Positions 14,001 through 34,269 of a stretch of DNA of 61,933 bases are shown in pieces. Origin of the DNA: Acidimicrobiales bacterium (lineage in GTDB: Bacteria > Actinomycetota > Acidimicrobiia > Acidimicrobiales > RAAP-2); NCBI GenBank assembly GCA_017883065.1, contig JADGOG010000001.1, forward strand, positions 1 through 61,933, read 5' to 3'. The notes below the pieces were generated by a model. The model worked only from the letters and a program-made list of their open reading frames with translations. It ran no database searches and was not told the origin of the DNA. A program made the position numbers and the translations under genes. Within the stretch, counting starts at the first letter, position 1; each line of letters opens with the position of its first letter.

Positions 14001-14043
14001 TCGAGTCGGCGAGGGCCCGCGAGCCACTGGCTATAGTCACTCC

Positions 14044-17509: not shown

Positions 17510-17516
17510 GGACTCC

Positions 17517-18500: not shown

Positions 18501-18513
18501 CCGGGTGGCCCCG

Positions 18514-19608
18514 ATGACCGGGATCCACCAATTCGTCCCCATGCTCCATCGACACGATGCTGTGGGAGTGCACACGCGCACCCTCCGCGACCGGGTAGTG
18601 GCGGCAGGGATGTCCTCGCGCATCTACACGGAGATCCCCGATCCACTCACCCGCGACGAGACACGGCCCTACCTCGACTACGAGTCGGAGTGCGAGCCCG
18701 GTGACGTGCTCGTCTACCAATTCGCCACCCAGTCCGTCGTCGCCGATTGGGTGGCCGACCGTCCCGAGCCGGTGGTCCTCGACTACCACAGCATCACCCC
18801 GCCCGAGTTCTTCGGTCCATGGAACAACGGGATCACCCGTGGCCAGGTCGGAGCCCTGCACCAGCTGGCCCGGATGGCGCCCAAGGCGCGGCTGGGGATC
18901 GCCCACTCGCAATTCATCGCCGACGAGCTGCAGCGGGCCGGATGCGCGCTGACCACGGTCATTCCGGTGGCCGGCGTGCCGGTGCCCCCCACGGAGCCGA
19001 GTGCTGACACGGTGGCGTGGCTGCGGTCCCGTCGGCAGGGTGCAGGTCATCAGTGGCTGTCGGTCGGCCGTCTGGCGCCGAACAAGCGTCACGAGCAGAC
19101 CATCGCCGCCCTCTTCGTCGCCCGGACCTCTTCGGACCCTGGAGCGTGCCTGACCATTGTGGGATCGCCGACCGAGGCCTCCTATGCCCGGGCGCTGCGG
19201 ACGTACGCGGCGGCACTCGGTCTGGCCGACGCCGTCGTCTTCGTGTCAGGTATCAGCGACGAGGACCTGGCCGCGCACTACCGGACCGCCGACGTCCTGG
19301 TGATGCTCTCTGATCACGAGGGGTTCGGGGTGCCCCTGGTCGAGGCGATGGGTCACGGCCTCCCCGTCGTCGCCTATGACGGGGGTGCGGTCGGGGAGAT
19401 CCTCGGTGGGGCGGGGACCCTCCTCGGCACCAAGCATCCACGCCTGGTGGCGGACCAGGTGGCCGGGCTGCTGGCCGATGCGGAAGCGGTAGAGGAGCGG
19501 CGACGGGCGGGCAGGTCGCGCTTCGATGCGTTGGGCCTGGCCGACGTCGGTGATCGCCTGTTCGAGGCGGTCCTGAGCGCCTCTCGACCCGGTCCGAGAG
19601 ATCCCTGA
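18514..19608 (+). CDS. glycosyltransferase family 4 (GTa paralog 2)
   Basis: The start is chosen at the ATG at 18514 (MTGIHQFVPML..) because it aligns with the MTAIHQFVPAL of paralog 1; a GTG at 18505 is also possible. ..LSDHEGFGVPLVEAMGHGLPVVAYDGGAVGEIL.. Confidence 0.85.
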   Translation: MTGIHQFVPMLHRHDAVGVHTRTLRDRVVAAGMSSRIYTEIPDPLTRDETRPYLDYESECEPGDVLVYQFATQSVVADWVADRPEPVVLDYHSITPPEFFGPWNNGITRGQVGALHQLARMAPKARLGIAHSQFIADELQRAGCALTTVIPVAGVPVPPTEPSADTVAWLRSRRQGAGHQWLSVGRLAPNKRHEQTIAALFVARTSSDPGACLTIVGSPTEASYARALRTYAAALGLADAVVFVSGISDEDLAAHYRTADVLVMLSDHEGFGVPLVEAMGHGLPVVAYDGGAVGEILGGAGTLLGTKHPRLVADQVAGLLADAEAVEERRRAGRSRFDALGLADVGDRLFEAVLSASRPGPRDP

Positions 19609-19672
19609 CGGGGACCGGGTCCGGTCCGGGCCTGCGTCCGTGGGCAGACCTGAGCCACTAGGCTCTGGCCGC

Positions 19673-20341
19673 ATGGACGACACCCGCCACTTGGCTCTGC
19701 ACGCCTCCACCCCCCTCAGTGAGGGCCGTTCCCTCGAGATGCAGTCCGGTGCCGAGGTCGGTCCGGGCACCGACATCTTCCAGCGGCTGCTCAAGGAGCG
19801 GATCGTGTTCATCGGCTCGGCCATCGACCAGAACACCGCCAACCTTGTCTGCTCCCAGCTGATCCTGCTCGAGGCCGAGAATCAGGAGCGGGACATCTCG
19901 GTGTACATCAACTCGCCCGGTGGTTCGGTGACCGACGGCCTGGCCATCTACGACACCATGCAGTACGTGCGCTGCGACGTGCGCACCATCTGCGTGGGCC
20001 TGGCTGCGTCGATGGGCCAGTTCCTGCTGTGCGCCGGCACCCCGGGCAAGCGCTTCGCCCTGCCCCACAGCCGCATCCTCATGCACCAGCCCTCGGGCGG
20101 CATGCAGGGCCAGGCCTCCGACATCGCCATCCAGGCCGAGCAGATCATGTACCTGAAGCGGATGATGGCCGAACGCATCGCCTTCCACACCGGCCAGCCG
20201 CTGGAGCGGATCGAGGCGGACTCCGACCGTGACCGTTGGTTCACCGCCGAGGAGGCACAGGAGTACGGCTTCATCGACGAGGTCATCCAGAAGGACGCCA
20301 TGGACGTCCCGACTGCCGGGGCGGGGGCTGCCGGCAAGTGA
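19673..20341 (+). CDS. clpP: ATP-dependent Clp protease proteolytic subunit ClpP (ClpP1-like)
   Basis: [18 protein letters not shown]...[64 protein letters not shown]. The Ser (AASMG), His (MHQP) and Asp (DRD) triad positions are all present. The start is uncertain (GTG 19640, ATG 19673, or the internal ATG giving MQSGAEVG). Confidence 0.9.
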
Positions 20342-21324
20342 GCCTCAGCGTCGACCGGCCCCCAGGGTCGGAGCCCGAGCACGTCGCCACCATCGGGGGC
20401 AGCACCCGGTTCGTCCCCGGGCAGAGCCACGACCGGATCACCGTGGTCAACGGGAAGGTCGAGCTGGGCCGCAGGCTGAAGGATCTCTGGACCAACCGCG
20501 ACCTGCTGATCCTGCTCACCCGTACCGAGCTGAAGGTGAAGTACAAGAACTCGGTGCTCGGCTACGTGTGGTCGATGCTGAATCCGGCTCTGGTGCTGGG
20601 CATCTACTACGTGATCTTCAAGGTCATCGCCAAGACCTACCAGCCCCACTTCGCCATCTGGTTGTTCTGCGGTCTGCTGGTGTGGAACCTGTTCAACAAC
20701 GCGGCCATGGGCTCCACCACGGTGGTGGTGGGCAAGGCCGGGATCATCAAGAAGGTGGCGTTCCCGCGTGAACTCCTGGCCCTCTCGACGGTCGGGGTGG
20801 CCATGGTGCTCTTCGCCATCCAGGTGGTGGTGCTGGCTGTCTTCCTGCTGATCTTCCAACTCGTCCCGGACTGGCAGGCCATGATCCTCCTGCCACTGGC
20901 CCTGGTCACGCTGATCATCTTCACCAGTGCGGTGTCGATCTTCCTGTCGGCCGCCAACGTCTACCTACGTGACACCCAGCACCTCACCGAGGTGCTGTTG
21001 ATGGCGTGGTTCTGGGGAACGCCGATCGTCTATCCGTACGGCCAGGTCCAGAGCCACCTCGCCAACTGGCACCTGACCTGGCTCTACCTGGCCAACCCGA
21101 TCGCTCCGATCGCCATGTCCTTCCAGCGCGCCATCTATGGACAGACCTCTTACATCGCTTCCCAGAACAATCCGACCCACAAGGTCACGCCACTGCTCCC
21201 GAACGTCCCGCTGACCCAGTACGCGGCACTGCTTGGCATCATGTTCGTGGTGAGCATCGGGCTGTTCCTGGCGTCCCTGATCGTCTTCGGTCGGCTCGAG
21301 GGCAACTTCGCCGAGGAGCTCTGA
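20338..21324 (+). CDS. wzm: ABC-2 type polysaccharide/O-antigen export permease (Wzm-like)
   Basis: LWTNRDLLILLTRTELKVKYKNSVLGYVWSMLNPALVLGIYYVIF is the ABC-2 N-terminal signature, followed by about 6 hydrophobic spans. The start must lie upstream of that motif. The GTG at 20338 overlaps the clpP stop (GTGA). The ATG at 20236 would overlap clpP by about 100 nt. The exact start is uncertain. Confidence 0.8.
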   Translation: MSLSVDRPPGSEPEHVATIGGSTRFVPGQSHDRITVVNGKVELGRRLKDLWTNRDLLILLTRTELKVKYKNSVLGYVWSMLNPALVLGIYYVIFKVIAKTYQPHFAIWLFCGLLVWNLFNNAAMGSTTVVVGKAGIIKKVAFPRELLALSTVGVAMVLFAIQVVVLAVFLLIFQLVPDWQAMILLPLALVTLIIFTSAVSIFLSAANVYLRDTQHLTEVLLMAWFWGTPIVYPYGQVQSHLANWHLTWLYLANPIAPIAMSFQRAIYGQTSYIASQNNPTHKVTPLLPNVPLTQYAALLGIMFVVSIGLFLASLIVFGRLEGNFAEEL

Positions 21325-21327
21325 CCG

Positions 21328-22596
21328 GTGAGCGTCGCCATCGAGATCCGTGACATCTCCAAGCAGTTCCGCCTCTACAACGAGAAGCACACCTCGCTGA
21401 AGGAGCGGGTCATCCACGGCGGCAAGATGCCCTTCACCCCGTTCTGGGCACTGAAGAACATCACCGTCGACATCAACCAGGGGGAGACCTTCGGGATCCT
21501 CGGCCGGAACGGCTGCGGCAAGTCGACCCTGCTCAAGTGCGTGGCCGGCATCATCAAGCCGACCTCCGGCGAGATCAGGGTCCGGGGCAGCCTGGCCGCC
21601 ATGCTGGAGCTCGGAGCCGGCTTCCAGCCCGACCTCTCCGGTCGGGACAACATCTACCTCAACGGGTCGTTGCTCGGCCTCTCTCACTCGGAGATCGAGA
21701 AGCGGTTCGACGACATCGTTGCCTTCGCCGAGCTCGAGGAGTTCATCGACAACCAGGTCAAATTCTACTCGTCAGGCATGTACGTCCGACTTGGCTTCGC
21801 GGTGGCCGTCAACGTCGAACCCGATGTGCTGTTGGTCGATGAGGTGCTCGCAGTGGGGGACGCCAACTTCCAGCGCAAGTGCCTCGACCACGTGAAGAAG
21901 TTCCAACGCGAAGGTCGGACCATCGTGGTGGTCAGCCACGGCACCGACACCATTCGTCAGAACTGCAACCGGGTGATGGTGATGAACCATGGCCAGGTCA
22001 TCACCGTGGACGAACCCGGTGAGGGGATCCGGGTGTACATGGCCGACCTGCTCGGCGTGGGTACCCTCGAAGGTTCCGAATCGGGGGGAATCGAGGGGAA
22101 TGTTCTCGCCATCGGCACCGTCCAGGCCGAACACGGCGGCAGCGGAAGTCGGCCCCACATGTACGCCGGTGAGTCGTTGACCGTCACCGCCGATGTGGAC
22201 AGCCTGGCTGCCGTCCCCGACGCCATGGCCACGGTGGCCATCCATGACGACAGGAACGAGCTGGTCTTCGCCTCCGATCCCGATGATCCGGCATGCCAGA
22301 TGGAGATCCCCGAGGGTGGGGGGATCGTCCGGTTCTTCTTCCCGGAGGTGCCGTTGCTCGACGGCACCTACTCGGTCAGCGTGGGAGTCCGCAGCGAGAA
22401 GCAGACGGCCATCTTCGACTGGAAGGACCAGGTCACCCAGTTCGAGGTGGCCAATCCCGGTCGCACCACCGGTCGGGTGCGGCTCCCGCTCGACGTCAGC
22501 TTCCGGCTCCGCTCCAGCGGCCACACAGGAGAGGTTCCCGTGGTGAGTGGCATCCCGTTCGCCCCGTTGGCCGGATGGGAAGAGTCATCCGCGTGA
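21328..22596 (+). CDS. wzt: polysaccharide ABC exporter ATP-binding protein with extended C-terminal domain (Wzt-like)
   Basis: 422 aa with a GTG start 4 nt after the wzm stop. Walker A GRNGCGKSTLLK, signature YSSGMYVRLGFAVA, Walker B LLVDEVLAVGD. About 170 extra C-terminal residues (..LTVTADVDSL..VAIHDDRNELVF..DGTYSVSVGV..FEVANPG) resemble the Wzt carbohydrate-binding beta-sandwich. Confidence 0.9.
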   Translation: MSVAIEIRDISKQFRLYNEKHTSLKERVIHGGKMPFTPFWALKNITVDINQGETFGILGRNGCGKSTLLKCVAGIIKPTSGEIRVRGSLAAMLELGAGFQPDLSGRDNIYLNGSLLGLSHSEIEKRFDDIVAFAELEEFIDNQVKFYSSGMYVRLGFAVAVNVEPDVLLVDEVLAVGDANFQRKCLDHVKKFQREGRTIVVVSHGTDTIRQNCNRVMVMNHGQVITVDEPGEGIRVYMADLLGVGTLEGSESGGIEGNVLAIGTVQAEHGGSGSRPHMYAGESLTVTADVDSLAAVPDAMATVAIHDDRNELVFASDPDDPACQMEIPEGGGIVRFFFPEVPLLDGTYSVSVGVRSEKQTAIFDWKDQVTQFEVANPGRTTGRVRLPLDVSFRLRSSGHTGEVPVVSGIPFAPLAGWEESSA

Positions 22597-22603
22597 ACTG
22601 CCG

Positions 22604-23692
22604 GTGACGGTCAAGCGCATCGACCAGGTGATCCCGACACTGGCCAGTCGTGACGCCATCGGGGGACACGTCGTCCAACTGCGGGACCTGTTGCGCTCGC
22701 GGGGCTACCAGTCGGACATCTTCTACGGCCAAGCCTCGCCGGACCGCCTCGACTTCGGGCTGCCGGTCAGCCGCCTGGGGGACAAGTCGTCGAACGGCCG
22801 GGTCCTCATCTACCAGCTGTCCATCGGAAGCGGCGTCGCCGACATCTTCCGCCAGCGCAGTGAGCGGAAGTTCGTGAATTACCACAACATCACACCGGCC
22901 GACCTCCTCGAGGCGTGGGTACCGGCGGTGGGTGAAGAGGTGCGCTGGGGACGGGCCCAGCTGCGCGACCTCGCCCCGGTCACCGAATTCGCCATCGCCG
23001 ACTCGATGTTCAACGAACGCGAGCTCCAGGTGGCCGGGTACCGGTCGACCACCACGGTGCCCCTGTTGATCGACCTCGACGGCTTTTCCGGGACCCCCGA
23101 CCCGGTGCTCGCAGAGCGCCTCGCCGCGCAGAAGGCGGCCGGCGGGACGGATCTGTTGTTCGTCGGGAAGGTCTCCCCCCACAAGGGCCAGGATGACCTG
23201 GTCAAGGCGCTCGCCACCTACAGGCGCCTGTACGACCCGGACGCCCGCCTCCACCTGGTCGGTGGAGCCATCAGCGAGGAGTACCAGAACGCCCTCGAGC
23301 GGTTCGCCGACGAATTGGGGCTGCTCGACGCGGTGGAGATCGCCGGATCGGTCACCCACGAGGAGCTGATCGCCTACTACACCGGTGCGGACGCCTTCGT
23401 GTGCCTCTCCAATCACGAGGGCTTCTGCGTTCCCCTCCTCGAGGCGATGTACCACCGCCTCCCGATCGTGGCGCACACCACGACTGCAGTCCCCGAGACG
23501 GTGCAGGGTGCGGGGTTGATCCTGCCCAACAAGGAACCAGCCCGGGTGGCCGCGGCCATCAACCGGGTGGTCACCGATGCAACGTTGCGTTCAGCGCTGG
23601 CCCGGGCGGCCTCCGAGCGGGTCGAGACGTTCGCCCTGCCCCGGGTGCAGGACGGGTTCGCCTCGGCCCTCGAGGCTGCCTGCGCCGCGTGA
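22604..23692 (+). CDS. glycosyltransferase family 4 (GTa paralog 3)
   Basis: The track ORF 22547-23692 is trimmed to the GTG at 22604, just after the wzt stop. VTVKRIDQVIPTLASRDAIGGH.. aligns with the other GTa N-termini. ..LSNHEGFCVPLLEAMYHRLPIVAHTTTAVPETV.. Confidence 0.85.
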   Translation: MTVKRIDQVIPTLASRDAIGGHVVQLRDLLRSRGYQSDIFYGQASPDRLDFGLPVSRLGDKSSNGRVLIYQLSIGSGVADIFRQRSERKFVNYHNITPADLLEAWVPAVGEEVRWGRAQLRDLAPVTEFAIADSMFNERELQVAGYRSTTTVPLLIDLDGFSGTPDPVLAERLAAQKAAGGTDLLFVGKVSPHKGQDDLVKALATYRRLYDPDARLHLVGGAISEEYQNALERFADELGLLDAVEIAGSVTHEELIAYYTGADAFVCLSNHEGFCVPLLEAMYHRLPIVAHTTTAVPETVQGAGLILPNKEPARVAAAINRVVTDATLRSALARAASERVETFALPRVQDGFASALEAACAA

Positions 23693-23783
23693 GTGCCCAC
23701 TCGAGTGCGCATCCCGCCCGCCCGTAGCCGCCGTGGCTGCGGCCTACCGACGATGGTGCATGCTCGATGACAGCGGTGCTCCG

Positions 23784-24989
23784 ATGAAGGTGTCGTTCGT
23801 CGTCCCGCGCTACGGGCCGAGCATCATCGGCGGAGCGGAGACGGCGGCGCGCCTGCTGGCCGAGCATCTGGTGGCACAGAAGGGCTGGGAGGTAGAAGTC
23901 CTCACCAGCTGTGCCGAGGACTTCGTCACCTGGGCCGACGCGCTGTCCGAGGGACCCGACGTGATCAACGGGGTCACCGTGCGGAGGTTCCGGTCCGAGT
24001 CCGGTCGACACCCCTCGTTCCATCCGCTCTCCGCCTCGCTCCTGGCCGACCCGGCCAACGCCTCGCTGGACGACGCCCAACGCTGGGTGGACCTGCAGGG
24101 GCCGGTGGTCCCCGGGCTGGTCGACGCCGCCGTTCGGACTGACGCCGACGTGCTGGTGTTCTATCCCTACTTGTACCATCCGACCGTCCGGGTCATCGAC
24201 CGGGTATCGGTCCCGACCATCCTCCATCCGGCGGCCCACGACGAACCCGCCCTCCGGTTGCCGGTCTTCCCGGCGGTGTTCGCCGCCGCGGACGGGCTGG
24301 TGTTCCAGACATCGGCCGAGCGTGCCCTGGTTCAGGAGCTGTTCCCGGTGGCCACCCATCGCCAACTGCTTCTCGGATTGGGCGTGGACGATCCCGATCT
24401 CCTCCCGGACGGCGGTGTCGAGGAGGGGACGGACGTGTCGTCAGGAGGAGGAGCGGTGAGGGCAGATCCCTACGTGCTGTGTCTGGGGAGGATCGATCGG
24501 CACAAGGGCACGTCACTCCTGGCCGATCTGTTCGCCGCCTACGCCGACCGTCACGGGGGAAGCCTCCGACTGGTGCTGGCCGGCCCGGTGATCGACGCCC
24601 CACCTCCCCATCCGCGGATCGATGTCCTGGGTCCGGTCACGGACGTGGAGAAGTGGTCGCTGCTCCGTGGAGCGCAGGCCCTGGTGTCGCCGTCGGCCTG
24701 GGAGGCGTTCTCCTTGGTGGTGGCCGAGGCGTGGAGCGCCCGGACGCCGGTGTTGGTGAACGCCGCATGTGCGGCCACCGTCGAACACTGTCGTCGATCA
24801 GGAGGGGGACTCACGTTCGCCGGGTACGGCGAGTTCGAGGCGGCCATCGACCTGCTGACACTCGATGATCGGGCGAGGGCCTCGTTCGGCCACCGGGGAC
24901 GCCGCTACGTCGACCAGTGGTTCCGTTGGCCCCGGGTGATCGACCGGTACGCCGCGTTCATCGAGTCCGTGGTGGGGACGCCCCGCTGA
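23784..24989 (+). CDS. glycosyltransferase family 4 (GTb paralog 2)
   Basis: The track ORF 23577-24989 is trimmed to the ATG at 23784. MKVSFVVPRYGPSIIGGAETAARLLAEHL.. parallels 16262. ..PSAWEAFSLVVAEAWSARTPVLVNAACAATVEHCRRSGGGL.. An alternative ATG lies at 23760. Confidence 0.85.
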   Translation: MKVSFVVPRYGPSIIGGAETAARLLAEHLVAQKGWEVEVLTSCAEDFVTWADALSEGPDVINGVTVRRFRSESGRHPSFHPLSASLLADPANASLDDAQRWVDLQGPVVPGLVDAAVRTDADVLVFYPYLYHPTVRVIDRVSVPTILHPAAHDEPALRLPVFPAVFAAADGLVFQTSAERALVQELFPVATHRQLLLGLGVDDPDLLPDGGVEEGTDVSSGGGAVRADPYVLCLGRIDRHKGTSLLADLFAAYADRHGGSLRLVLAGPVIDAPPPHPRIDVLGPVTDVEKWSLLRGAQALVSPSAWEAFSLVVAEAWSARTPVLVNAACAATVEHCRRSGGGLTFAGYGEFEAAIDLLTLDDRARASFGHRGRRYVDQWFRWPRVIDRYAAFIESVVGTPR

Positions 24990-26912
24990 TCAGACCCCGT
25001 GGCCCAACGGACGCGGTCCGGAGTTGACCAGGACCGGCACGCCGAGGATGGACACTCCCGGCCGGACACGCCACACCCGATAGCCACCGATGTCGGTGGT
25101 GGCCACCGAGACGGCGTCGCCGTTGGACGTGAGTGCCTCCAGGCCCGGCAGCGCAGGCGAAGCCACCAACAGGACGGAGCCGCCCGGAGCCACGGTGAGT
25201 TGGGAAGGCGGCGTGTAGAACAGGCCACCACCGAGTTCGTTGTACATCACCTGGTTGGTGCCGACGAGTGCGATCCGGGCGCCGGGAAGCTCCCACCCGG
25301 CATTGCGGTAGATGTTCTGGCCCCCGTCGATGGTGTCGAACACCACCACGTCCCGCCCGGTGTGGACCACCGATCCGAGGTCGCCGAGTGCGGCGTCCAT
25401 CGAGTCGGCCAGCCGGATCGATGCCGCAGTGGTGGCGTAGGGCGCCTGATAGCGCGGCTGGTCGAGCCAGAGGGACGAGGAGCCCTGGGTCCACTCCGGC
25501 GGGATGGCGGCGACCGCACTGACGAAACGCTGCGCCCCGACCAGGGCCACCGCACCGACGGTCAGCGAGGTGAGCACCACCCAGGTCGGTGAGAGGCGAC
25601 GCCTGTCTGACGTCCGCCGGTTGAGCGCGCCCAGTGGCAGCAGGAGGGCGATCACGGCAGCAGGTAGATAGGCCAACAAGTAGCCACCCTTGGCGAACTG
25701 GATGACGGTAACGAGCAGCACCGGAGGCACGATGGCCGCACCGAGTACCGCGGTGCGCGACCGGTACCAGGGTCGTCCGGGGCGGGTGCCCGCCGGAGCG
25801 GTCTCCCCGGTATGGGCCGCGGTCGACGAGGCGTCGGGATCGGTCAGCGGTCCACTGCTGTCCATCCCTCGGTGGGCGATGGCCGAGATGGTTCGACGGA
25901 CCAGGAGGAGCAGTCCGGCCAGGAGGGCGAGCGCGGCCAAGGGGGCGAGTGCCAGGGAGGTGTAGGCGGCGAAGGTGCCGAAGTTGGTGGCGGTCCCGGT
26001 GGCATGGTCGAGGACGGAGGTCTGTTGTGCCGCCCCCGACACCTCCAGCCGTGTGGCGTGCAGCCAGGCATGGAATCCCCCCGGTTGACTGGCCAGCATG
26101 GGCACGAACCATGATCCGCTGGCCACGATGCCGACGACCACGGTGATCCCCAGGCGGCTCAGGCGACGGGTCGAGCCGATCACCGCCAGCAGCGCCAGTA
26201 GGGCGAATGCCGTCACGATCGACTGGCGGAAGCCGGCCAGCACGCCGAGGGCGGCTACCGCGTAGACGCCGTGCCAACTGTTCGGGCGCGCCCGCCAGGC
26301 GAAGATCACCAGCAGCGAGCAGGCCACCATGTCGAAGGAGTAGGTGGCCACGATGGACCCGCTGAACCAGGCGAACGGCGACAGCGCCACCACGACGCCC
26401 GCCACCAGTCCGACCCAACCACCTCCGAGATCACGGCCGGCGACCGTGGTCAACCCCACGGCCAGGGCGGAGGCCAGGGCGGACACCAGGACCAGGCCGG
26501 CGATCGTGCCCATGCCGGTGACGGAGTGGAGCAGCCGTCCCGATTCCACGTAGAGCCAGTACCCGGGTGGCTGGGGCTGACCGTGGGTGATGTCAAAATG
26601 CCGCACCGCCGAGGCATACTGGGCCGAGTCCCAGTCGGTCGGGCCGGTCGCTGCCGTGGCCAACCGGAGGGCCAGGGTGCCCAGGGCGAGGAGCCAAGGC
26701 ACCGCCGACCAGCGGTTCCGGCGGCGGTTGCGACGCTGCAGTTGCGCCCTGGTCAGTCGGGGAGCAGGCGCCGGGGACGCCTTCTCGTCGGGTTCGTCCT
26801 GGACGGACGGTGCCGGAAGGGGCGGGAGGGTGTCGGTCGGCCACCACGAGGGCACATCCTCCAGTGGGTCGAGAACCGGTGCTTCCGGGTGCCCGGTGAC
26901 GACGGAGACCAT
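24990..26912 (-). CDS. polytopic membrane protein, GT-C-like (DUF2723/PMT-like glycosyltransferase candidate)
   Basis: 640 aa. A cytoplasmic Arg-rich N-terminus is followed by at least 10 hydrophobic spans. The first loop is ..GPTDWDSAQYASAVRHFDITHGQPQPPGYWLYV.. (acidic loop plus a PPGY motif, as in GT-C mannosyltransferase-like families). A soluble C-terminal domain follows. Its stop abuts the stop of the convergent GT4 gene. Confidence 0.65.
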   Translation of the reverse strand: MVSVVTGHPEAPVLDPLEDVPSWWPTDTLPPLPAPSVQDEPDEKASPAPAPRLTRAQLQRRNRRRNRWSAVPWLLALGTLALRLATAATGPTDWDSAQYASAVRHFDITHGQPQPPGYWLYVESGRLLHSVTGMGTIAGLVLVSALASALAVGLTTVAGRDLGGGWVGLVAGVVVALSPFAWFSGSIVATYSFDMVACSLLVIFAWRARPNSWHGVYAVAALGVLAGFRQSIVTAFALLALLAVIGSTRRLSRLGITVVVGIVASGSWFVPMLASQPGGFHAWLHATRLEVSGAAQQTSVLDHATGTATNFGTFAAYTSLALAPLAALALLAGLLLLVRRTISAIAHRGMDSSGPLTDPDASSTAAHTGETAPAGTRPGRPWYRSRTAVLGAAIVPPVLLVTVIQFAKGGYLLAYLPAAVIALLLPLGALNRRTSDRRRLSPTWVVLTSLTVGAVALVGAQRFVSAVAAIPPEWTQGSSSLWLDQPRYQAPYATTAASIRLADSMDAALGDLGSVVHTGRDVVVFDTIDGGQNIYRNAGWELPGARIALVGTNQVMYNELGGGLFYTPPSQLTVAPGGSVLLVASPALPGLEALTSNGDAVSVATTDIGGYRVWRVRPGVSILGVPVLVNSGPRPLGHGV

Positions 26913-27137: not shown

Positions 27138-29417
27138 ATGGAAGCAGTACCGGACATGAGGAATGCAGCCGACGGCCGGAAGGCCGAGAGGAGTTGGTTC
27201 CGCCGGGGCGCCACCGGAGGCATTGCCGTACTCGGAGTGTTCGGATCGATGGCGGGAGCAGGGGCGCTTGCCGGCCCGGCCCAGGCCGCGTCGCCCGCCC
27301 CCCATGCCGGGGTGGCCACCTCCCTCACCTGGCAACAGGTTCTCCCCGACGCCGGCTCGCCCATCGGGCAGAGCTCACCCTCGGAGGCCACCCTCGACGG
27401 CGGGGGTCCCTCGACGGTGGTGGGGGATCGCGCCGGCAACGTCTGGGCCTTCCACCTGGCCAACGGTTCACCGGTCCGGGGATGGCCGGCCCAGGCGGGT
27501 GGACCGGTCGATTCGACCCCGTCCTCCAGCCCGAATGGCACCGGCACCGACACGGTGTTCGTGGGCTCGGGGAACGCGGCGAATCCACGAGTGGGCGGCT
27601 ATCACGCCTTCGCCAACACCGGCGCGTCGTTGTGGAGTCGCAATGCCCAGGACCCCAACGGCCTCTATGGCGTCCAGGCTTCGCTGTCGGTGGGAACACT
27701 CAACGGAGTGAGGGGTGTGGCGGCCCCGTCACTCGGCCAAGAGGCGTACGCCCTCAACGCCGCAAACGGCTCGTCGCTCCCCGGCTGGCCTTTCTTCACC
27801 GCGGACAGCGGCTTCACCACGCCCTCGCTCGCCAACCTCTACGGGAACGGCCAGACCGAGGTGGTCGAGGGCGGGGACTCCTCGGCCGGTATCGCCAATG
27901 GACAGACCTATACGTCGGGCGGGCACCTGCGGATCCTGGACGGGGGCGGGAACCTGATCTGCCACTTCGACACCAACCAGACCGTCGACTCCTCGACGGC
28001 GGTGGGCAACTTCCTGGCCGGTGGCCAGGTGGGAGTTGCCTTCGGCACGGGATCGTTCTTCCGGGGGGCATCCGACTCCAACATGCTGTTCGGCTCCGAC
28101 TCCCACTGCAACATCGTCTGGCGGAGCAACCTCGGTGGCAACACCGTGGGGAGCCCGGCCATCGGGGACATCGTGGGTGACGGGAACGTCGAGGTCATCG
28201 AAGGCGCCGACACCGGCTCCGGCGGCCTGGTGTGGGCGCTCAACGGCGCCAACGGCACGCCGGTGCCCGGATGGCCCCAGCGGACCTCGGGCCGGATCAT
28301 CGGTGGCATCACCACCGCCGACCTCACCGGCGGCGGGTACAACGACGTCCTGGTCCCGACCACCAACGGTCTGGTCATCTACGACGGTCGCAGCGCACAG
28401 GTGGTGGCCACGCTGGGGGCCGGCGTGATGGGCCTGCAGAACTCCGCCATGGTGGCCATCGACCCGAACGGCACCATCGGGATCACCATCGCCGGCTACA
28501 GCTCGCAGAACGCCGGGATCATCCAGCACTACGAGGTCGCCGGCTCGACCGGGCACTCGTTGGGCAAGCGGGCCTGGCCGATGTTCCACCAGAACCCGCA
28601 GTTGACCGGATGGCTGAGCCAGCCGGCCCCCGGGCACCTGAACAGGCCGATCGTGGGCATGGCCGCCACCGGGGACGCCAAGGGGTACTGGAACGTGGCC
28701 ACAGACGGAGGGATCTTCTCCTTCGGGGACGCCTCCTTCCACGGCTCGACCGGGAACCTGCGGCTGAACAGACCGATCGTGGGCATGGCCGCCACTCCCG
28801 ATGGAGGCGGGTACTGGCTGGTGGCCAGTGACGGAGGCATCTTCTCCTTCGGCGACGCCCGCTTCTTCGGCTCCACCGGCAATCTCCACCTGAACAGACC
28901 GGTCGTGGGCATGGCCGCCACTTCCGACGGCAAGGGCTACTGGATGGTGGCCTCGGACGGCGGCATCTTCAGCTTCGGCGACGCCCGCTTCCACGGCTCC
29001 ACCGGCAATCTCCATCTGAACAGACCGGTCGTGGGCATGGCCGCCACTCCCGATGGAGGGGGGTACTGGATGGTGGCCTCGGACGGCGGCATCTTCTCCT
29101 TCGGGTCGGCCCGGTTCTTCGGCTCGACCGGGAACCTGCGCCTCAACCAGCCGGTGGTGGGCATGACGCCCACTCCCGATGGCCACGGGTACTGGTTCGT
29201 GGCCTCGGACGGAGGCATCTTCTCCTTCGGCGACGCCCGCTTCTTCGGCTCGATGGGGGGAAAGCACCTCAATCTGCCCATCGTGGCCATGGCCTCCAAC
29301 CACGGGAACGGCTACTGGTTGGCAGCTGCAGACGGCGGCCTCTTCTCCTTCGGGAGCGCCCCCTTCTACGGCTCGATGCCCCAGGTGTTCGCCTCGCAGG
29401 TCACCGGGGTCGACTGA
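27138..29417 (+). CDS. secreted FG-GAP/VCBS-type beta-propeller protein with C-terminal 6 x 42-aa GYW/SDGG repeat module
   Basis: 759 aa. The signal peptide has RR (..RSWFRRGATGGIAVLGVFGSMAGAGALAGPAQA), possibly Tat. The N-terminal half shows alternating ..NG.P..GWP.. and FG-GAP-like calcium-loop motifs (LYGNGQTEVVEGG, IVGDGNVEVIEGA, LTGGGYNDVLVPT). The C-terminal 250 aa consist of six tandem repeats. Confidence 0.8.
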   Translation: MEAVPDMRNAADGRKAERSWFRRGATGGIAVLGVFGSMAGAGALAGPAQAASPAPHAGVATSLTWQQVLPDAGSPIGQSSPSEATLDGGGPSTVVGDRAGNVWAFHLANGSPVRGWPAQAGGPVDSTPSSSPNGTGTDTVFVGSGNAANPRVGGYHAFANTGASLWSRNAQDPNGLYGVQASLSVGTLNGVRGVAAPSLGQEAYALNAANGSSLPGWPFFTADSGFTTPSLANLYGNGQTEVVEGGDSSAGIANGQTYTSGGHLRILDGGGNLICHFDTNQTVDSSTAVGNFLAGGQVGVAFGTGSFFRGASDSNMLFGSDSHCNIVWRSNLGGNTVGSPAIGDIVGDGNVEVIEGADTGSGGLVWALNGANGTPVPGWPQRTSGRIIGGITTADLTGGGYNDVLVPTTNGLVIYDGRSAQVVATLGAGVMGLQNSAMVAIDPNGTIGITIAGYSSQNAGIIQHYEVAGSTGHSLGKRAWPMFHQNPQLTGWLSQPAPGHLNRPIVGMAATGDAKGYWNVATDGGIFSFGDASFHGSTGNLRLNRPIVGMAATPDGGGYWLVASDGGIFSFGDARFFGSTGNLHLNRPVVGMAATSDGKGYWMVASDGGIFSFGDARFHGSTGNLHLNRPVVGMAATPDGGGYWMVASDGGIFSFGSARFFGSTGNLRLNQPVVGMTPTPDGHGYWFVASDGGIFSFGDARFFGSMGGKHLNLPIVAMASNHGNGYWLAAADGGLFSFGSAPFYGSMPQVFASQVTGVD
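28638..29393 (+). repeat. six in-frame tandem repeats, period 126 nt (42 aa): LN.P.VGMA.TPDG.GYW.VASDGGIFSFGDA.F.GSTGNL
   Basis: Direct reading shows six units: LNRPIVGMAATGDAKGYWNVATDGGIFSFGDASFHGSTGNLR, LNRPIVGMAATPDGGGYWLVASDGGIFSFGDARFFGSTGNLH, LNRPVVGMAATSDGKGYWMVASDGGIFSFGDARFHGSTGNLH, LNRPVVGMAATPDGGGYWMVASDGGIFSFGSARFFGSTGNLR, LNQPVVGMTPTPDGHGYWFVASDGGIFSFGDARFFGSMGGKH, LNLPIVAMASNHGNGYWLAAADGGLFSFGSAPFYGSM. Confidence 0.9.
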
Positions 29418-29473
29418 GCCGCAGCCGTGGGCGGGCGTGCAGCTGCGTCGCAGCCGTCGGTGGGCGGGGATCG

Positions 29474-29496
29474 CTCATGGGCACAAGGCCCATGAG
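29474..29496 (+). terminator. perfect 9-bp stem / 5-nt loop hairpin downstream of the FG-GAP gene
   Basis: CTCATGGGC-ACAAG-GCCCATGAG lies 57 nt after the stop at 29417. There is no U-tract, so its terminator function is inferred only. Confidence 0.4.
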
Positions 29497-29570
29497 GACT
29501 AGTCAGAGTGCCGACACCGACCATGCGGCCATCACGGAGAGTTGAGAAGTCAGTGGGACGGGAAAGGACG

Positions 29571-31538
29571 ATGGCGACCACGGTGCGAACCCGCAAGCGG
29601 TCGTGGGTGGCGCGGTTCGTGGCCGCTGCGGTCATCGGATCCGGACTGGGCGTGGCTGTGACTTCGCTGCCGGCCTCGGCCTATCCGTCGTCGACGGTCT
29701 CCTTCGTGGGCCACGGCTACGGACATGGCCACGGCATGGGCCAGTGGGGTGCCCTCGGCTACGCCCTGTCCCAGACCGGTTACCAGTCGATCCTCGGGCA
29801 CTACTACGGAGGAACGTCGCTGGTCGGTGGCGTGTCCGACCAGCCGATCCGGGTGGCCCTGACCGAGAACAACGACAACACGGTGATCGTGACGTCGGGC
29901 TCGGGCCTCACCGTGCCAGGAACGCCGGTCGCCGCGGCAGCCGTGGAGATGGTCCCGACCGGGTCGAACCAGTGGACCGTCTATCAGGGGCCGGGGTGCG
30001 GGGGGCCATGGACGCAGGTGGCGACGACAGCCGACCCGACGGCGGTGCCCAACGGCCCGCAGCTGCTCCAACTCTGTCAGGGTGGTGGCAATCTGACAGT
30101 CCACGGCAACATCCAGGCCACCTACAACTCGGCCGGTGCGGCACGCACGGTCAACAGCCTGCCCCTGGAGCAGTACGTGGCCGACGTGGTGCCCAACGAG
30201 TCACCTGCAGGGTGGGGGACGTTCGGAGGTGCGGGACCCCAGGGCCAGGCCTGGGGATTCCAGGAGCTGGAAGCCCAGGCGGTGGCCGTGCGCTCCTACG
30301 CCATGGCCGGCATCGGGTCCTACGGGGGGTACGCCGACATGTGTGACCTGAGTTGCCAGACCTACCGGGGAACCCTCCACGAGAGTGCCATCACCAACCT
30401 GGCCGCCAGTGTCACTGCCGGTCAGGTGATGAGGTTCGCATCGGGAGCGGTGGCCGCCACCCAGTACTCGGCCTCGACCGGTGGCTACACGGCACCAGGT
30501 GCGTTTCCGGCGGCCCCTGATGCGGGGGACGCGGTGTGCGTGCAGGGTTGGTGCAACACCAGCCACACCTGGACGGCGTCGATCCCCGTGTCGACGATCG
30601 ACGCCACTTGGCCCCAGCTCGGGTCACTCCAGTCGATCAGCATCACCGCCCGCAACGGGTTCGGCGACTGGGGTGGGCGGGTCAACTCGATGGCCCTGAT
30701 CGGGTCCAGCCAGACTGTCGTGCTCTCCGGGGACGCCTTTGCCGGTGCCCTGGGACTGAAGTCGGACTGGTTCACCACCTCCACCTCGCTGGGCAGCCCG
30801 GCGGTGGGCATGGCCTCGACCCCGGACGGTGGCGGCTACTGGATTGCCGGCGCCAATGGCGCAGTCGGAGCCTTCGGTGACGCCGGCTTCCACGGATCGG
30901 CCAGCGACCTCACCCTGACCCGTCCGGTCGTGGGCACTGCGGCAACCCCCGATGGAAGTGGCTACTGGCAGGTGGCGTCCGACGGAGGCGTCTTCAGCTT
31001 CGGTGCCGCCCGCTTCCACGGATCGACCGGCAATCTCCGCCTCAACCAACCCATCGTGGGCATGGCGTCCACCGCCGACGGCGGCGGCTACTGGATGGTC
31101 GCCTCCGACGGCGGCATCTTCTCCTTCGGCGACGCCCACTTCTACGGCTCGACCGGCAATCTCCGCCTCAACCGACCGGTGGTGGGCATGGCGACCACCT
31201 CGGACGGGATGGGGTACTGGCTGGTGGCGTCCGACGGCGGAGTCTTCTCCTTCGGCGACGCCCGGTTCTACGGCTCGACCGGGAACCTGCGCCTGAACCG
31301 ACCGGTGGTGGGCATGGCGACGGCGCCCGGCGGCGGCTACTGGATGGTCGCCTCCGACGGCGGCATCTTCTCCTTCGGCAGTGCACGGTTCCGCGGGTCG
31401 ACCGGAAACCTTGCCCTGGTGAAGCCGGTGGTGGGCATGGCGTCCACCTCCGACGGCGGCGGCTACTGGATGGTCGCCTCCGACGGCGGCATCTTCTCCT
31501 TCGGCGACGCCGCCTTCCACGGGTCCGCCGCCGGATAA
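29571..31538 (+). CDS. secreted SpoIID/LytB-domain protein with C-terminal 6 x ~42-aa GYW/SDGG repeat module
   Basis: The track ORF 29508-31538 is trimmed to the ATG at 29571 (GGAAAGGA upstream). Signal peptide ..VAAAVIGSGLGVAVTSLPASA. SpoIID hallmarks VSFVGHGYGHGHGMGQWGALGYA, LEQYVADVVPNESPAGWG and ELEAQAVAVRSYA are present. The C-terminal 249 aa form six repeats of the same family as in the upstream gene. Confidence 0.85.
   Translation: MATTVRTRKRSWVARFVAAAVIGSGLGVAVTSLPASAYPSSTVSFVGHGYGHGHGMGQWGALGYALSQTGYQSILGHYYGGTSLVGGVSDQPIRVALTENNDNTVIVTSGSGLTVPGTPVAAAAVEMVPTGSNQWTVYQGPGCGGPWTQVATTADPTAVPNGPQLLQLCQGGGNLTVHGNIQATYNSAGAARTVNSLPLEQYVADVVPNESPAGWGTFGGAGPQGQAWGFQELEAQAVAVRSYAMAGIGSYGGYADMCDLSCQTYRGTLHESAITNLAASVTAGQVMRFASGAVAATQYSASTGGYTAPGAFPAAPDAGDAVCVQGWCNTSHTWTASIPVSTIDATWPQLGSLQSISITARNGFGDWGGRVNSMALIGSSQTVVLSGDAFAGALGLKSDWFTTSTSLGSPAVGMASTPDGGGYWIAGANGAVGAFGDAGFHGSASDLTLTRPVVGTAATPDGSGYWQVASDGGVFSFGAARFHGSTGNLRLNQPIVGMASTADGGGYWMVASDGGIFSFGDAHFYGSTGNLRLNRPVVGMATTSDGMGYWLVASDGGVFSFGDARFYGSTGNLRLNRPVVGMATAPGGGYWMVASDGGIFSFGSARFRGSTGNLALVKPVVGMASTSDGGGYWMVASDGGIFSFGDAAFHGSAAG
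30789..31535 (+). repeat. six in-frame tandem repeats (123-126 nt) of the same GYW..SDGG.FSFGDA family
   Basis: The units begin LGSPAVGMASTPDGGGYWIAGANGAVGAFGDAGFHGSASDLT, LTRPVVGTAATPDGSGYWQVASDGGVFSFGAARFHGSTGNLR, LNQPIVGMASTADGGGYWMVASDGGIFSFGDAHFYGSTGNLR, LNRPVVGMATTSDGMGYWLVASDGGVFSFGDARFYGSTGNLR, LNRPVVGMATAPGGGYWMVASDGGIFSFGSARFRGSTGNLA, LVKPVVGMASTSDGGGYWMVASDGGIFSFGDAAFHGSAAG. A 52-nt string (CGGCGGCGGCTACTGGATGGTCGCCTCCGACGGCGGCATCTTCTCCTTCGGC) occurs exactly three times, at 31079, 31328 and 31454. Confidence 0.9.
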
Positions 31539-31569
31539 CCGACCGGCCGATGGGACCGAGAGCAGCCCA

Positions 31570-34269
31570 GTGCCACGTCCTAAGGTGCTGCGTGCGATGA
31601 CCGAACGCACGAACCATGGCAGTCCCGGCCCCGAACTGCAGGCACCGGCAGCCTCCTCTGAGGCGGCCCGTCCGGCCGCCGGCGCGCCTCCGGCGGCTGA
31701 CGATGGGTCCGCCGCCTCCGTCGCAGTCCCGACATCCACGGCCAGGCTCGGCCGGTGGCGTCAGGGAGCAGGGACGTGGCAGGCGATCCTCTTCGCCCCG
31801 ATAGGAGACGGGCAGACCCGGCGCAGGGGATCGGATGCCTTCCGGCTCGGGACCGCCCTGGTAGTCGTCTTCCTGTGTTGGCTCTTCACCCACGCCAACT
31901 CGAATGCCGAGCACGGGATCGCCACCACGCTCGCCTCCCCGCCGAACGGGCTCCGCTGGCTCGTGTCGGCCATCTGGTGGATCACGTCGTTCGGCGTGAT
32001 CGTGGTGATCGCCGCTCTGGCCCTGATCCACCGGAAATGGACAGCGGTCCGTGACATTGCCATCTCGGGGACCGGCGCCTGGCTGCTCTGTGTGCTCTCG
32101 GCGCTCCTCTTCGGCTCCACCGGCGGGCGGCCCCCCACCACGTCCCTGGTTCACTTCGACCTGTCGTTCCCCGTGGCGAGGGTGGCGGCCACCGTGGGCG
32201 TGGCCACGGCGGCGCTGCCCTACCTGAGCCGGTTGCTGCAGCGCTGCATCGAGGTGGGGATCGTGCTGCTGGCGGTGGCGTCGGTGGTCAACGGCTCCGG
32301 ACTGCCGGTCGCCGTCCTGGCCAGCCTGGCGGTCGGCTGGGGAGTCACCGCTGTGGTCCATCTGATCTTCGGATCACCCCTGGGCCTGCCCTCGTCCGCC
32401 GAGGTGACCGTGCTCCTGGACGATCTGCAGATCGCCGCCGAGGGGATCACCCCGGTGGCCCGCCAGGCATGGGGTGTGGGACGGTTCACCGGTCGGGTGG
32501 GCAGCGCTCCGGTCGACGTCTCGGTATACGGACGGGATGCCTCTGACGCACAGCTCCTGGCCAAGACCGGGCGGTTCCTCTTCTACCGGTCGTCGGGCCC
32601 CACGCTCGCTTTCACCCGCCGCCAACAGGTCGAGCACGAGGCGTACCTGACCCTGATGGCGGCGCGTGCCGGGGCCCGGGTTCCGGTGGTCCTGGCCGCC
32701 GGTCCGGCCGGTCCGGCGCGAGACGCTCTTCTGGTGACCCAGCCCCCCGCCGGGGACCGGCTGTCGTCGTTCGCCGCCTACGTCCCGCCCCCGGCATCGG
32801 AGGACTCCGGAGCCGACGCCTCCGGCGACCGGGCATCGGAGGACACCGGGTCGTCCGCACCGCCCCCGGCCGCTCCCGATGACGCAGTCGACGGTGCGCC
32901 GGTCGTCGACGACGCGGCCATCGACGACGTCTTCACCCAGGTGCTCCGCCTTCGCAACGCCGGGATCGCCCATGGCGCCCTCTCCACCGAAACGGTCGTG
33001 GTGGACGGTGAGGGCCGGGCCGGCCTCATCGACTTCAGATCGGCACTGACCGTCGCTCCGCCCGACGACCTCAACCGGGACACCGCCGCCGTCCTGGCTG
33101 CCGCCTCGGTGACGGTGGGGCCGGACCGGGCCGTCGCCTCGGCGGCCCGGGTCCTGCCCTCCGATGTGCTGGTGCAGGCCCTGCCCTTCCTGCAGCGGGC
33201 GGCACTCGACCCGGTGGCCTCCCGCACCTTGCGGGGCAAGAAGTCCATGCTCACCTCGGCCAGGGCGCAGGGGGCGGCGACGGCCGGCGTGGAGACACCC
33301 AAGCTCATCGAACCCCGACGGGTCAGCTGGGTCAACCTCGTGCTCGTCGTCGGCACGCTGATCGGCGGGTGGGCCCTGATCGGCGTCCTGGTCAACGTGG
33401 GCAAGTCGTGGAGCACCATCACCGGGGCCAAGTGGGGATGGGTGGCCGCCACGTTCGTCCTGGCCCAGGCCGCCTACCCGGCCATCGCCGCCACCACCGT
33501 GGGCTCGGTGACCAGCACCCTGCCCTACGGCCGCACGGTCGCCCTCGAGGTGGCCGATACCTTCGTGGCCCTGGCCGGCGGCTCGATGGCCACGCTGGCC
33601 ACCCGGGTCCGCTTCTTCCAGCAGGAGGGCCTCAGTCCCACCGTGGCGGTGAGTTCGGGCGTGCTGGTCAGCACCGCAAGTTGGATCGTCAAGGGCGCAC
33701 TGTTCCTGATCGCCCTTCCGCTCGCCATCGGCCAGCTGCACTTCCACGCGGAGTCGGACACCCCGAGCAACGGGAACGCCCACCTGGTGTGGCTGATCGT
33801 GATCGTGGTGCTGGTGGTGGGGGTGGCCGTCGGTCTCCTCTTCGCCGTCCCCCGCTGGCGGCGCATGGCCACCGAGAAGGTGCGGCCCAAGGCATCCGAG
33901 GTGTGGGCCCACCTCAAGGTGCTGGCCTCCCGGCCGCGCAATCTGATCGAGATCTTCGGGGGAAGCGCCCTGGCCCAGATCTTCGTGGCCCTGGCCCTCG
34001 GCGCCGCCCTCCACGCCTTCGGTGACCGCCTCGGCCTGGCCACCCTGCTGGTGGTGCTGACCATGGCCTCGATGCTCGGGGGCATCTCGCCGGTTCCCGG
34101 CGGGATGGGGGTGGTCGAGGCCGGCATGATCCTCGGGCTGACCGCCGCCGGGATCAGTCAGCCCGACGCGGTGGCGGCCACCTTCGTCCAGAGGCTGTTC
34201 ACCGCCTACCTGCCGCCGATCTGGGGTTGGTTCGTCCTGGTGTGGCTGCGCAGGCGCGAGTACCTGTGA
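31570..34269 (+). CDS. large integral membrane protein: N-terminal TM bundle + degenerate protein-kinase-like domain + C-terminal flippase-like (LPG synthase TM/UPF0104-type) domain
   Basis: 899 aa (GTG 31570, or ATG 31597). About 6 hydrophobic spans are followed by a soluble region with kinase-like landmarks (VDVSVYGRD.., EHEAYLTLMAARAGARVP, AGIAHGALSTETVVVD, GLIDFRSA). A second bundle of about 8 spans ends in MLGGISPVPGGMGVVEAGMILGL, the P.PGG.G..E signature of the MprF-flippase/UPF0104 family. Confidence 0.7.
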   Translation: MPRPKVLRAMTERTNHGSPGPELQAPAASSEAARPAAGAPPAADDGSAASVAVPTSTARLGRWRQGAGTWQAILFAPIGDGQTRRRGSDAFRLGTALVVVFLCWLFTHANSNAEHGIATTLASPPNGLRWLVSAIWWITSFGVIVVIAALALIHRKWTAVRDIAISGTGAWLLCVLSALLFGSTGGRPPTTSLVHFDLSFPVARVAATVGVATAALPYLSRLLQRCIEVGIVLLAVASVVNGSGLPVAVLASLAVGWGVTAVVHLIFGSPLGLPSSAEVTVLLDDLQIAAEGITPVARQAWGVGRFTGRVGSAPVDVSVYGRDASDAQLLAKTGRFLFYRSSGPTLAFTRRQQVEHEAYLTLMAARAGARVPVVLAAGPAGPARDALLVTQPPAGDRLSSFAAYVPPPASEDSGADASGDRASEDTGSSAPPPAAPDDAVDGAPVVDDAAIDDVFTQVLRLRNAGIAHGALSTETVVVDGEGRAGLIDFRSALTVAPPDDLNRDTAAVLAAASVTVGPDRAVASAARVLPSDVLVQALPFLQRAALDPVASRTLRGKKSMLTSARAQGAATAGVETPKLIEPRRVSWVNLVLVVGTLIGGWALIGVLVNVGKSWSTITGAKWGWVAATFVLAQAAYPAIAATTVGSVTSTLPYGRTVALEVADTFVALAGGSMATLATRVRFFQQEGLSPTVAVSSGVLVSTASWIVKGALFLIALPLAIGQLHFHAESDTPSNGNAHLVWLIVIVVLVVGVAVGLLFAVPRWRRMATEKVRPKASEVWAHLKVLASRPRNLIEIFGGSALAQIFVALALGAALHAFGDRLGLATLLVVLTMASMLGGISPVPGGMGVVEAGMILGLTAAGISQPDAVAATFVQRLFTAYLPPIWGWFVLVWLRRREYL

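Follow-up and report, generated by a model that had tools for sequence, protein, structure and literature searches.

Known wall-binding domains of phage endolysins and autolysins include SH3b, LysM, PG_binding_1, choline-binding repeats, CWB2, SLH and LGFP. Among beta-propellers, the closest described systems are the RCC1/BLIP-II proteins (PF00415, PF13540; structure 1JTD), with seven blades that are 39 amino acids long in BLIP-II; the NHL propeller of PknD and the designed Pizza2, Pizza3 and Pizza6 proteins (3WW7, 3WW8, 3WW9, 1RWI), with six blades of 42 residues; and the six-bladed propeller lectins of the Streptomyces umbrella toxins (UmbA), which bind wall teichuronic acid (bioRxiv 10.1101/2025.04.24.650519). 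Here we describe a six-unit repeat module that closes two proteins, pA and pB, encoded side by side in a stretch of 61,933 nucleotides (the window) from an Acidimicrobiales bacterium, an actinobacterium of soil that is uncultured (GTDB lineage Bacteria; Actinomycetota; Acidimicrobiia; Acidimicrobiales; RAAP-2; GenBank assembly GCA_017883065.1, contig JADGOG010000001.1, positions 1 to 61,933 of the forward strand), and we propose it as a candidate propeller-type anchor to the cell wall. Acidimicrobiia, which abound in soil, peat, water and wastewater, are rarely cultured, and to our knowledge little has been described of how they hold proteins on their surface.

With the wall-binding domains listed above, the module shares a position C-terminal to Amidase_2 and GH25 catalytic domains, an occurrence on many exported host enzymes and a repeat-based, multivalent build; it differs from them as a predicted beta-propeller with putative binding activity. 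With RCC1/BLIP-II it shares short blades (42 amino acids in the module), three strands per blade in the structural model, and the order of motifs, namely a small-ended hydrophobic strand, an aromatic-x-hydrophobic strand, a DG turn, a V/I-x-x-W/F-G strand and a Gly-rich connector; BLIP-II is moreover secreted, comes from actinobacteria and has been linked to the remodelling of the wall. The module departs from RCC1/BLIP-II in having six blades, a PDG.G insertion, and GYW and F.GS signatures, and we know of no BLIP-II relative that serves as an endolysin wall-binding domain. UmbA and the module, compared by description only, would both be six-bladed actinobacterial propellers that recognise cell-surface glycopolymers, the sugar sites of UmbA lying between blades; UmbA blades diverge at pocket positions, with strain-specific targeting, whereas the blades of the module share one consensus. 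The resemblance to PknD and to the Pizza series is geometric only, with no sequence similarity, and consists in the six blades of 42 residues and in the fact that Pizza chains of two, three and six blades form the same ring, which parallels a natural series of 2-, 3-, 6- and 12-unit modules reported below.

Repeat units and blade conservation

The genes pA and pB and their parts are as follows.

27138-29417, plus strand: pA, a predicted secreted two-propeller protein of 759 amino acids (open reading frame with a signal-like N-terminus, a PQQ/FG-GAP-like head and a six-unit module).
27138-27290, plus strand: putative export signal of pA (RR motif, hydrophobic stretch, AQA/AS cleavage-like site), read by eye from the translation.
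27291-28619, plus strand: head of pA, a putative PQQ-like/FG-GAP-like beta-propeller, from Pfam searches on 29 orthologues and profile matches in the PDB.
28638-29390, plus strand: repeat module of pA, six units of 41-42 amino acids (residues 501-751), from unit mapping, AlphaFold2 (AF2) and Foldseek.
29571-31538, plus strand: pB, a predicted secreted SpoIID-domain protein with a six-unit module, 655 amino acids, open reading frame from the ATG at 29571.
30138-30494, plus strand: core of the SpoIID/LytB catalytic domain of pB, a family that cleaves peptidoglycan glycan strands (PF08486, TIGR02669).
30789-31535, plus strand: repeat module of pB, six units (residues 428-676 of a 676-residue form), the first blade divergent, from unit mapping.

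The first-pass annotation of the window, made from the sequence without database searches, had described both proteins as ending in six tandem copies of one 41-42-residue unit. Mapping of the units bore this out and confirmed the coordinates: the GYW motif occurs six times in pA, at spacings of 42, 42, 42, 42 and 41 residues, and six times in pB, at spacings of 42, 42, 42, 41 and 42 residues, and at the DNA level the copies form one direct-repeat family with a period of 126 nt, each copy being 62-83% identical to the reference copy. Counted unit by unit, the repeats run over residues 501-750 of pA (28638-29387) and, in the 676-residue form, residues 428-675 of pB (30789-31532). None of the other open reading frames in the window carries the motif. 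Each blade is laid out as a VGMA strand, a PDG.G turn, a GYWLVA strand, a DGG turn, an IFSFG strand and a GDA.F.GS..G...LN.P connector.

To compare blades, we used 12 positions (six in pA, A1 to A6, and six in pB, B1 to B6) from 41 species in which the orthologues of pA and pB are both complete. The column frequencies of the resulting 492 orthologous units agree far beyond chance with the consensus that had been read from the single sequence: G16, G24 and G36 are present at about 100%, Y17 at 99%, W18 at 95%, D23 at 93%, A32 at 98% and S37 at 97%, and the columns kept at 93-100% comprise G16, Y17, W18, D23, G24, G25, F27, G30, A32, F34, G36 and S37. Between species, blades at the same position were barely more alike than blades at other positions or in the other protein (79% identity for A3 against A3, 76% for A3 against A2 and 77% for A3 against B3), and the only distinctive positions were the closing blades A6 and B1, B1 being the most divergent. 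All blades are kept to one consensus, and since every blade is held to it, several equivalent sites for a repeating polymer are probable. Within one species, adjacent internal blades were a few points closer to one another (82-85%), a hint that there may be some concerted evolution.

The register of the blades varies across the family. In the family alignments, the majority consensus opens at the GYW strand and closes with an extra LN.P.VGMA strand, in the manner of a 'velcro' closure, and 150 of the 267 members have no strand 1 in their first unit. The modules of pA, of pB and of most viral versions open with a complete unit and end at F.GS; the pA orthologues instead have a conserved tail, MP.VFA…G.D.

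Family searches and taxonomic range

The repeat had been reported as unrecognised, and it proved to be so in the collections searched: the modules of pA and pB had no significant match in Pfam-A or NCBIfam, segments restricted to the module matched no family in PHROGs, and the source names of repeat proteins are 'hypothetical protein' or spurious, for example 'ribosomal protein L24E'. It had also been set apart from named repeat families. For most of these the separation stands, as the Pfam models for WD40, Kelch, PQQ, FG-GAP and SBBP gave no match on either module at E<=1, and NHL was silent as well; RCC1 had been dismissed too quickly, given a weak but specific likeness to RCC1/BLIP-II that is described below. 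On the module, Pfam gave no match to YVTN, PD40 or TolB-like families, and searches of Pfam and PHROGs found no sequence relation to SH3b, LysM, PG_binding_1, choline-binding repeats, CWB2, SLH or LGFP.

A word-indexed search returned at least 7999 significant sequences among 8000 candidates, and an exhaustive search of 1.84 billion representatives yielded 19,847 clusters (at 50% identity) with E<=1e-3, including 9,826 with E<=1e-30. The 80 genome loci that were kept all come from uncultured metagenome-assembled genomes, most of them assigned to Acidimicrobiales or Acidimicrobiaceae and five just to Actinomycetes or Actinomycetota. The few named cluster members are all Acidimicrobiia, and the members of 10 diverse clusters are called 'Acidimicrobiia bacterium' or carry generic names. 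A search of a plasmid collection gave no match to the module.

The searchable literature held no account of the repeat, of a propeller-type cell-wall-binding domain in an endolysin, or of SpoIID in Acidimicrobiia. The fold (a propeller) and the role (a wall-targeting module) are each of a kind already known; the family itself, the combination of this fold with this role, and the natural series of 2, 3, 6 and 12 blades appear to be new relative to Pfam-A, NCBIfam, PHROGs and the searchable literature.

Predicted fold

We modelled the module with AF2 using an alignment of 82 sequences, which yielded a predicted local distance difference test score (pLDDT) of 93 and a predicted template-modelling score (pTM) of 0.88, with all five models at a pLDDT of at least 92. 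The model has three regular strands per unit, not four, in all six units, with a connector of about 16 residues after each triplet. A Foldseek search of the PDB with this model gave 1604 matches at E<=1e-3, and among the matches listed all were beta-propellers, aligned over about 265 columns and covering the full query; none was close, with template-modelling (TM) scores of 0.5-0.63 and 10-15% identity, and the likeness to WD40 propellers was generic (10-15% identity). Foldseek against BFVD, a library of viral structures, likewise returned propellers, about 20 of the top 50 matches being RCC1 proteins, including those with the highest identities.

Because Foldseek matches propellers and the copy numbers follow a pattern of sixes, the six blades most likely close into one compact propeller. 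The six-bladed propeller that the first-pass annotation had suggested from the period and copy number is thus upheld by the model scores, the six strand triplets, the propeller-only matches and the copy numbers, and with an alignment the modelling gave a confident propeller-like structure, neither poorly predicted nor disordered.

Copy number and fusion partners in cellular proteins

For 267 cellular family members, we counted blades from the span of the module. Six blades were found in 223 proteins, five in 36, twelve in 6 and eighteen in 1, with 7-8 blades in six proteins and a single blade in two; the counts of five are probably cases in which a divergent first blade was missed. Cellular copy numbers of mainly 6, 12 and 18, together with viral copy numbers of 2, 3, 6 and 12, fit a number that is set by ring closure.

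The module is C-terminal in 166 of the 267 proteins. A survey of the domains to which it is fused found dozens of unrelated and highly varied heads, all extracytoplasmic, with numerous peptidoglycan enzymes among them. Partners that act on peptidoglycan or bind the wall include SpoIID, YkuD, NlpC/P60, CHAP, VanY, M23, Rpf-type transglycosylase, PG_binding_1, CWB2 and Beta-lactamase2, and other partners are CAP, GH26, GH43, GH99, fn3, PKD, TIG, Big, cadherin-like, Calx-beta, Laminin_G_3 and CHB_HEX_C domains and other propellers.

Occurrence in phages

A tblastn search of deposited phage genomes gave a match in Caudovirales GX15bay (MK557849.1, 4639-8553), to a protein of 1304 amino acids that comes just after the minor tail protein and carries two divergent six-unit modules, at residues 447-705 and about 981-1231. 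This protein is labelled 'glycoside hydrolase family 25', but it had no Pfam match of any kind at E<=1e-5. Because the label failed in Pfam, we took the protein as one of the tail region; by appearance it is more a tail or receptor-binding protein than an endolysin.

We then drew on a scan of IMG/VR, which gave 95 relatives; 80 loci were kept, and 74 viral carriers were annotated for domains. Blade counts in the viral set were two (36 cases), three (38), six (5) and twelve (2), plus two single-unit fragments. Repeats of two and three units end 0-5 residues from the stop codon, in proteins of 220-400 amino acids. Pfam assigned Amidase_2 to 45 of the 74 carriers, GH25 to 3 and PG_binding_1 to 1, so that 48 of the 74 have Amidase_2 or GH25, and the PHROG matches of the carriers are overwhelmingly to endolysin and amidase families. 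In one carrier (L088), the N-terminal stretch of ~200 residues resembles proteins annotated as endolysins in phages isolated on Geobacillus, Clostridium and Arthrobacter, and its three repeat units are without counterpart in those endolysins. A tblastn search with a two-unit viral lysin against isolated phages gave no match. Since the repeat lies C-terminal to Amidase_2 or GH25 catalytic domains, in proteins with endolysin PHROGs and, in L088, behind an endolysin-like front, its place in the sequence is the one that wall-binding domains usually take in endolysins of phages with Gram-positive hosts.

The occurrence of only 2, 3, 6 and 12 units in viral proteins is the pattern expected of a six-blade ring built from trimers, dimers or single chains. 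By analogy with the designed Pizza2, Pizza3 and Pizza6 proteins, whose structures in the PDB demonstrate that such assembly is physically possible, the two- and three-blade phage chains probably trimerise and dimerise, respectively, into a six-blade ring.

Two further IMG/VR proteins (L083 and L084), about 1025-1067 amino acids long, carry twelve consecutive units (two propellers) in the middle of the protein, followed by about 270 residues without assignment. The median G+C of the viral loci is 66%, a value in keeping with high-G+C hosts.

Remote sequence affinities

With the BLIP-II sequence taken from PDB alignment output, a single BLASTP comparison with the pA module gave 25% identity over 141 residues, an in-register alignment across several blades, with E=2e-7. 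Because repeats and composition can inflate alignment scores, we applied a permutation control in which one identical random permutation was imposed on each BLIP-II repeat, over 1000 trials. Permuted sequences reached the real score in just 6 trials with pA, 17 with pB and 7 with the family consensus (z of 3.1-4.1). The best PDB match of a single-blade profile built from 60 sequences was the RCC1-like domain of HERC2, at a marginal E=0.048. With phmmer, the best PDB match of the whole module was 1L0Q, a YVTN propeller, at E=0.011, its individual domains being non-significant.

Other results point the opposite way. Pfam RCC1 and RCC1_2 did not match the modules even at E<=1, whereas 120 of 120 BLIP-II relatives carry PF13540, PF00415 or PF25390. 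With hhalign, a two-unit profile against RCC1_2 gave Prob 16% and E=0.0016, a result that we did not count as evidence because a reversed-self control scored alike (E=0.004), and an alignment of the repeat family against the lone BLIP-II sequence gave Prob 3.6%. A distant affinity to RCC1/BLIP-II is therefore plausible as judged by sequence, with homology unproven, and the module falls outside the RCC1 and RCC1_2 families of Pfam. BLIP-II blades have been reported as three-stranded. A sequence relationship to NHL, PknD and Pizza was tried with the same kind of control and rejected, at a permutation z of -0.4 to -0.7 and with Pfam NHL silent on the module.

Proposed function

We consider it fairly probable that the module is a propeller that binds the cell wall or envelope glycans non-covalently and so anchors exported proteins of Acidimicrobiia. 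The unrelated exported heads, many of them peptidoglycan enzymes, and the position taken in endolysins support the targeting or anchoring function that had been suggested for the module, with binding itself put forward as the likely means. In the mechanism that we envisage, six blades would make up a rigid ring whose equivalent sites, repeated around it, would bind a repeating wall component, either the glycan strands of peptidoglycan or a conserved secondary polymer, and the ring would retain or target whichever enzyme or binding head is fused to it. At the pA/pB locus, a SpoIID-type enzyme that cleaves glycan strands and a second propeller protein would in this way be kept at the wall, beside genes for the synthesis and export of a surface polymer. 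Phages, presumed to infect the same hosts, would have adopted the blades as a means of bringing their endolysins, and probably tail proteins, to the wall. For six-bladed propellers that bind a wall polymer, the UmbA lectins provide a precedent among actinobacteria.

Several points weigh against this proposal. Many fusion partners, such as glycosidases and Ig-like, cadherin-like and Calx-beta domains, are not wall enzymes, so the module could be a general surface-display or carbohydrate-binding unit and not a peptidoglycan binder. When AF2 was run on a single sequence without alignment, the model was poor (pLDDT 56), and the alignment-based run was used instead; ring closure, the putative pocket positions and the composition of the blades are read indirectly from the model output. 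The taxonomic span seen in the sequences is Acidimicrobiia, as judged from few named members, and the one hint of a tie between the phages and Acidimicrobiia hosts is the median G+C of the viral loci. The IMG/VR contigs, finally, are computational virus calls, some of which may be prophage or host fragments.

The partner list bears most directly on the alternative that survives best, in which the module would act as a general lectin or carbohydrate-binding unit towards external polysaccharides or surfaces, in substrate targeting or adhesion, and not as an anchor to the cell's own wall. GH26, GH43, GH99, Laminin_G_3, CHB_HEX_C, cadherin-like, PKD and fn3 domains are typical partners in secreted polysaccharide degraders and adhesins, and propeller lectins with repeated identical sites, such as RSL, AAL, tachylectin and UmbA, are well known. 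Recognition of external glycans would, however, leave unexplained both the systematic C-terminal place of the module in phage endolysins (48 of 74) and the enrichment of peptidoglycan-active partners, and the constancy of the sequence over blades and species is easier to reconcile with a self structure that is conserved than with external glycans that are diverse. We regard this alternative as unlikely.

The remote affinities described above raise another alternative, a BLIP-II-like protein-binding propeller that would dock on proteins of the penicillin-binding-protein/beta-lactamase fold, or on other wall-synthesis proteins, and would regulate or localise remodelling. The sole specific remote signal in sequence is indeed to RCC1/BLIP-II (HERC2, BLASTP and the permutation control), RCC1 proteins make up about 20 of the top 50 BFVD matches, the three strands per blade are as in BLIP-II, and Beta-lactamase2 is among the fusion partners; BLIP-II itself is secreted, with a proposed role in cell-wall remodelling (PMC9146315). 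Homology is nonetheless unproven, the Pfam RCC1 and RCC1_2 models are silent and hhalign does no better than its reversed-self control. Moreover, BLIP-II binds through one face and not through repeated sites, and a protein-binding propeller accounts neither for the endolysin position nor for the equivalence of the six blades, which makes this account improbable.

A mainly structural role, as a rigid spacer or a scaffold for multimerisation without specific ligand, would draw some support from the self-assembly implied by the 2- and 3-unit viral forms and from the high stability of symmetric propellers such as the designed Pizza2, Pizza3 and Pizza6 (PDB). It is very improbable, as a spacer would have no need of aromatic and acidic surface positions that every blade keeps at 93-100% across thousands of clusters and would not explain the terminal placement on many unrelated enzymes or in the wall-binding slot of endolysins. 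Each of these alternatives covers part of the data, and none covers both the endolysin position and the equivalence of the six blades.

Returning to the non-covalent wall anchor, we also put forward a wider version of it, more tentatively: the module may be an undescribed class of wall-binding domain that serves as the main non-covalent wall anchor of Acidimicrobiia and is reused in phage endolysins and tail proteins, with a natural series of 2, 3, 6, 12 and 18 blades in which the short phage forms rebuild the six-blade ring. The module would bind a conserved wall polymer, possibly the one made by the Wzm/Wzt cluster near pA and pB. If this is true, nature would have its own version of the designed Pizza proteins in the blade series, which would also show the evolution of propellers out of blade fragments still in progress.

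With about 20,000 clusters lacking a model in Pfam, NCBIfam and PHROGs, thousands of proteins stay 'hypothetical'. Defining the module would improve their annotation and flag exported wall-associated proteins; it would also help in spotting phage endolysins and receptor-binding proteins, hence phage-host links in Acidimicrobiia, and engineered lysins would gain a new domain for targeting the wall. For the evolution and assembly of propellers, the series of 2, 3 and 6 blades found in nature is in itself a useful test case.

Heads of pA and pB and genomic neighbourhood

Codon-position G+C marks both pA and pB as real genes, with a third-position G+C (GC3) of 0.86-0.88 (0.88 for pA) in a window of about 70% G+C. 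The name 'SpoIID protein' given to pB in the first-pass annotation was confirmed by matches of its head to PF08486 in Pfam (residues 211-309 of the 676-residue form, E=4.6e-13) and to TIGR02669 in NCBIfam (residues 214-329 of the same form, E=6.1e-27, passing the cut-off). The start of pB is ambiguous between a GTG at 29508 (676 amino acids) and the ATG at 29571 (655 amino acids); a signal-like sequence, MATTVRTRKRSWVARFVAAAVIGSGLGVAVTSLPASA|YP, starts at M22 of the long form, directly after the ATG at 29571, and the first-pass annotation had taken this ATG as the start.

The 'FG-GAP protein' label of pA is weak in pA itself, where the head matched FG-GAP_3 at E=0.0096, below the cut-off as were all its other Pfam matches, and holds better for the orthologue set, which is propeller- or FG-GAP-like: among 29 orthologues of the head, 14 matched Beta-prop_ACSF4 (best 7e-7) and 11 matched FG-GAP_3 (best 3.4e-5). 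PDB profile matches of the head were to designed 'Bagel' propellers (6e-19) and to integrin alpha-L (0.0048). Judged across the 29 orthologues, the head looks like a PQQ-like/FG-GAP-like propeller. In the signal region of pA, the pattern ...LG...AL....PA.AA.P is kept in the orthologue consensus.

In 62 of 80 species-level Acidimicrobiales genomes, the orthologues of pA and pB lie side by side. Their setting is one of cell-envelope biogenesis, with the following neighbours in the window.

24990-26912, minus strand: divergent neighbour, a multi-pass membrane protein of 640 amino acids with no family match, kept upstream in 47 of 80 loci.
31570-34269, plus strand: downstream neighbour of 899 amino acids with a C-terminal MprF-like flippase domain (LPG_synthase_TM; PF03706, E=4e-22).
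12075-24989, plus strand: surface-glycopolymer cluster, given as context, with a PMT_2-type GT-C glycosyltransferase gene, a methyltransferase-like gene, four GT4 genes, a Wzm permease gene (ABC2_membrane) and a gene for a Wzt ATPase with a Wzt_C carbohydrate-binding domain.

The 640-residue membrane protein had no match in Pfam or NCBIfam, and its N-terminal region (…WDSAQYASAVRHFDITHGQPQPPGYWLY…) resembles GT-C-type glycosyltransferases by eye. The 899-residue neighbour, kept downstream of pB in 49 of 80 loci, has partial matches to NF033480 and TIGR00374, and its long N-terminal part has faint Bud32-kinase-like matches (E of about 1e-3). Long antisense open reading frames overlie the repeat regions on the minus strand (27729-29303, 28529-29311 and 30624-31739), some of them with high GC3; they mirror the periodicity of the repeat, and the best explanation for them is high G+C combined with tandem repetition, not that they are genes. 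The glycopolymer cluster also contains a gene for a ClpP protease (19577-20341), which lies between a GT4 gene and wzm.

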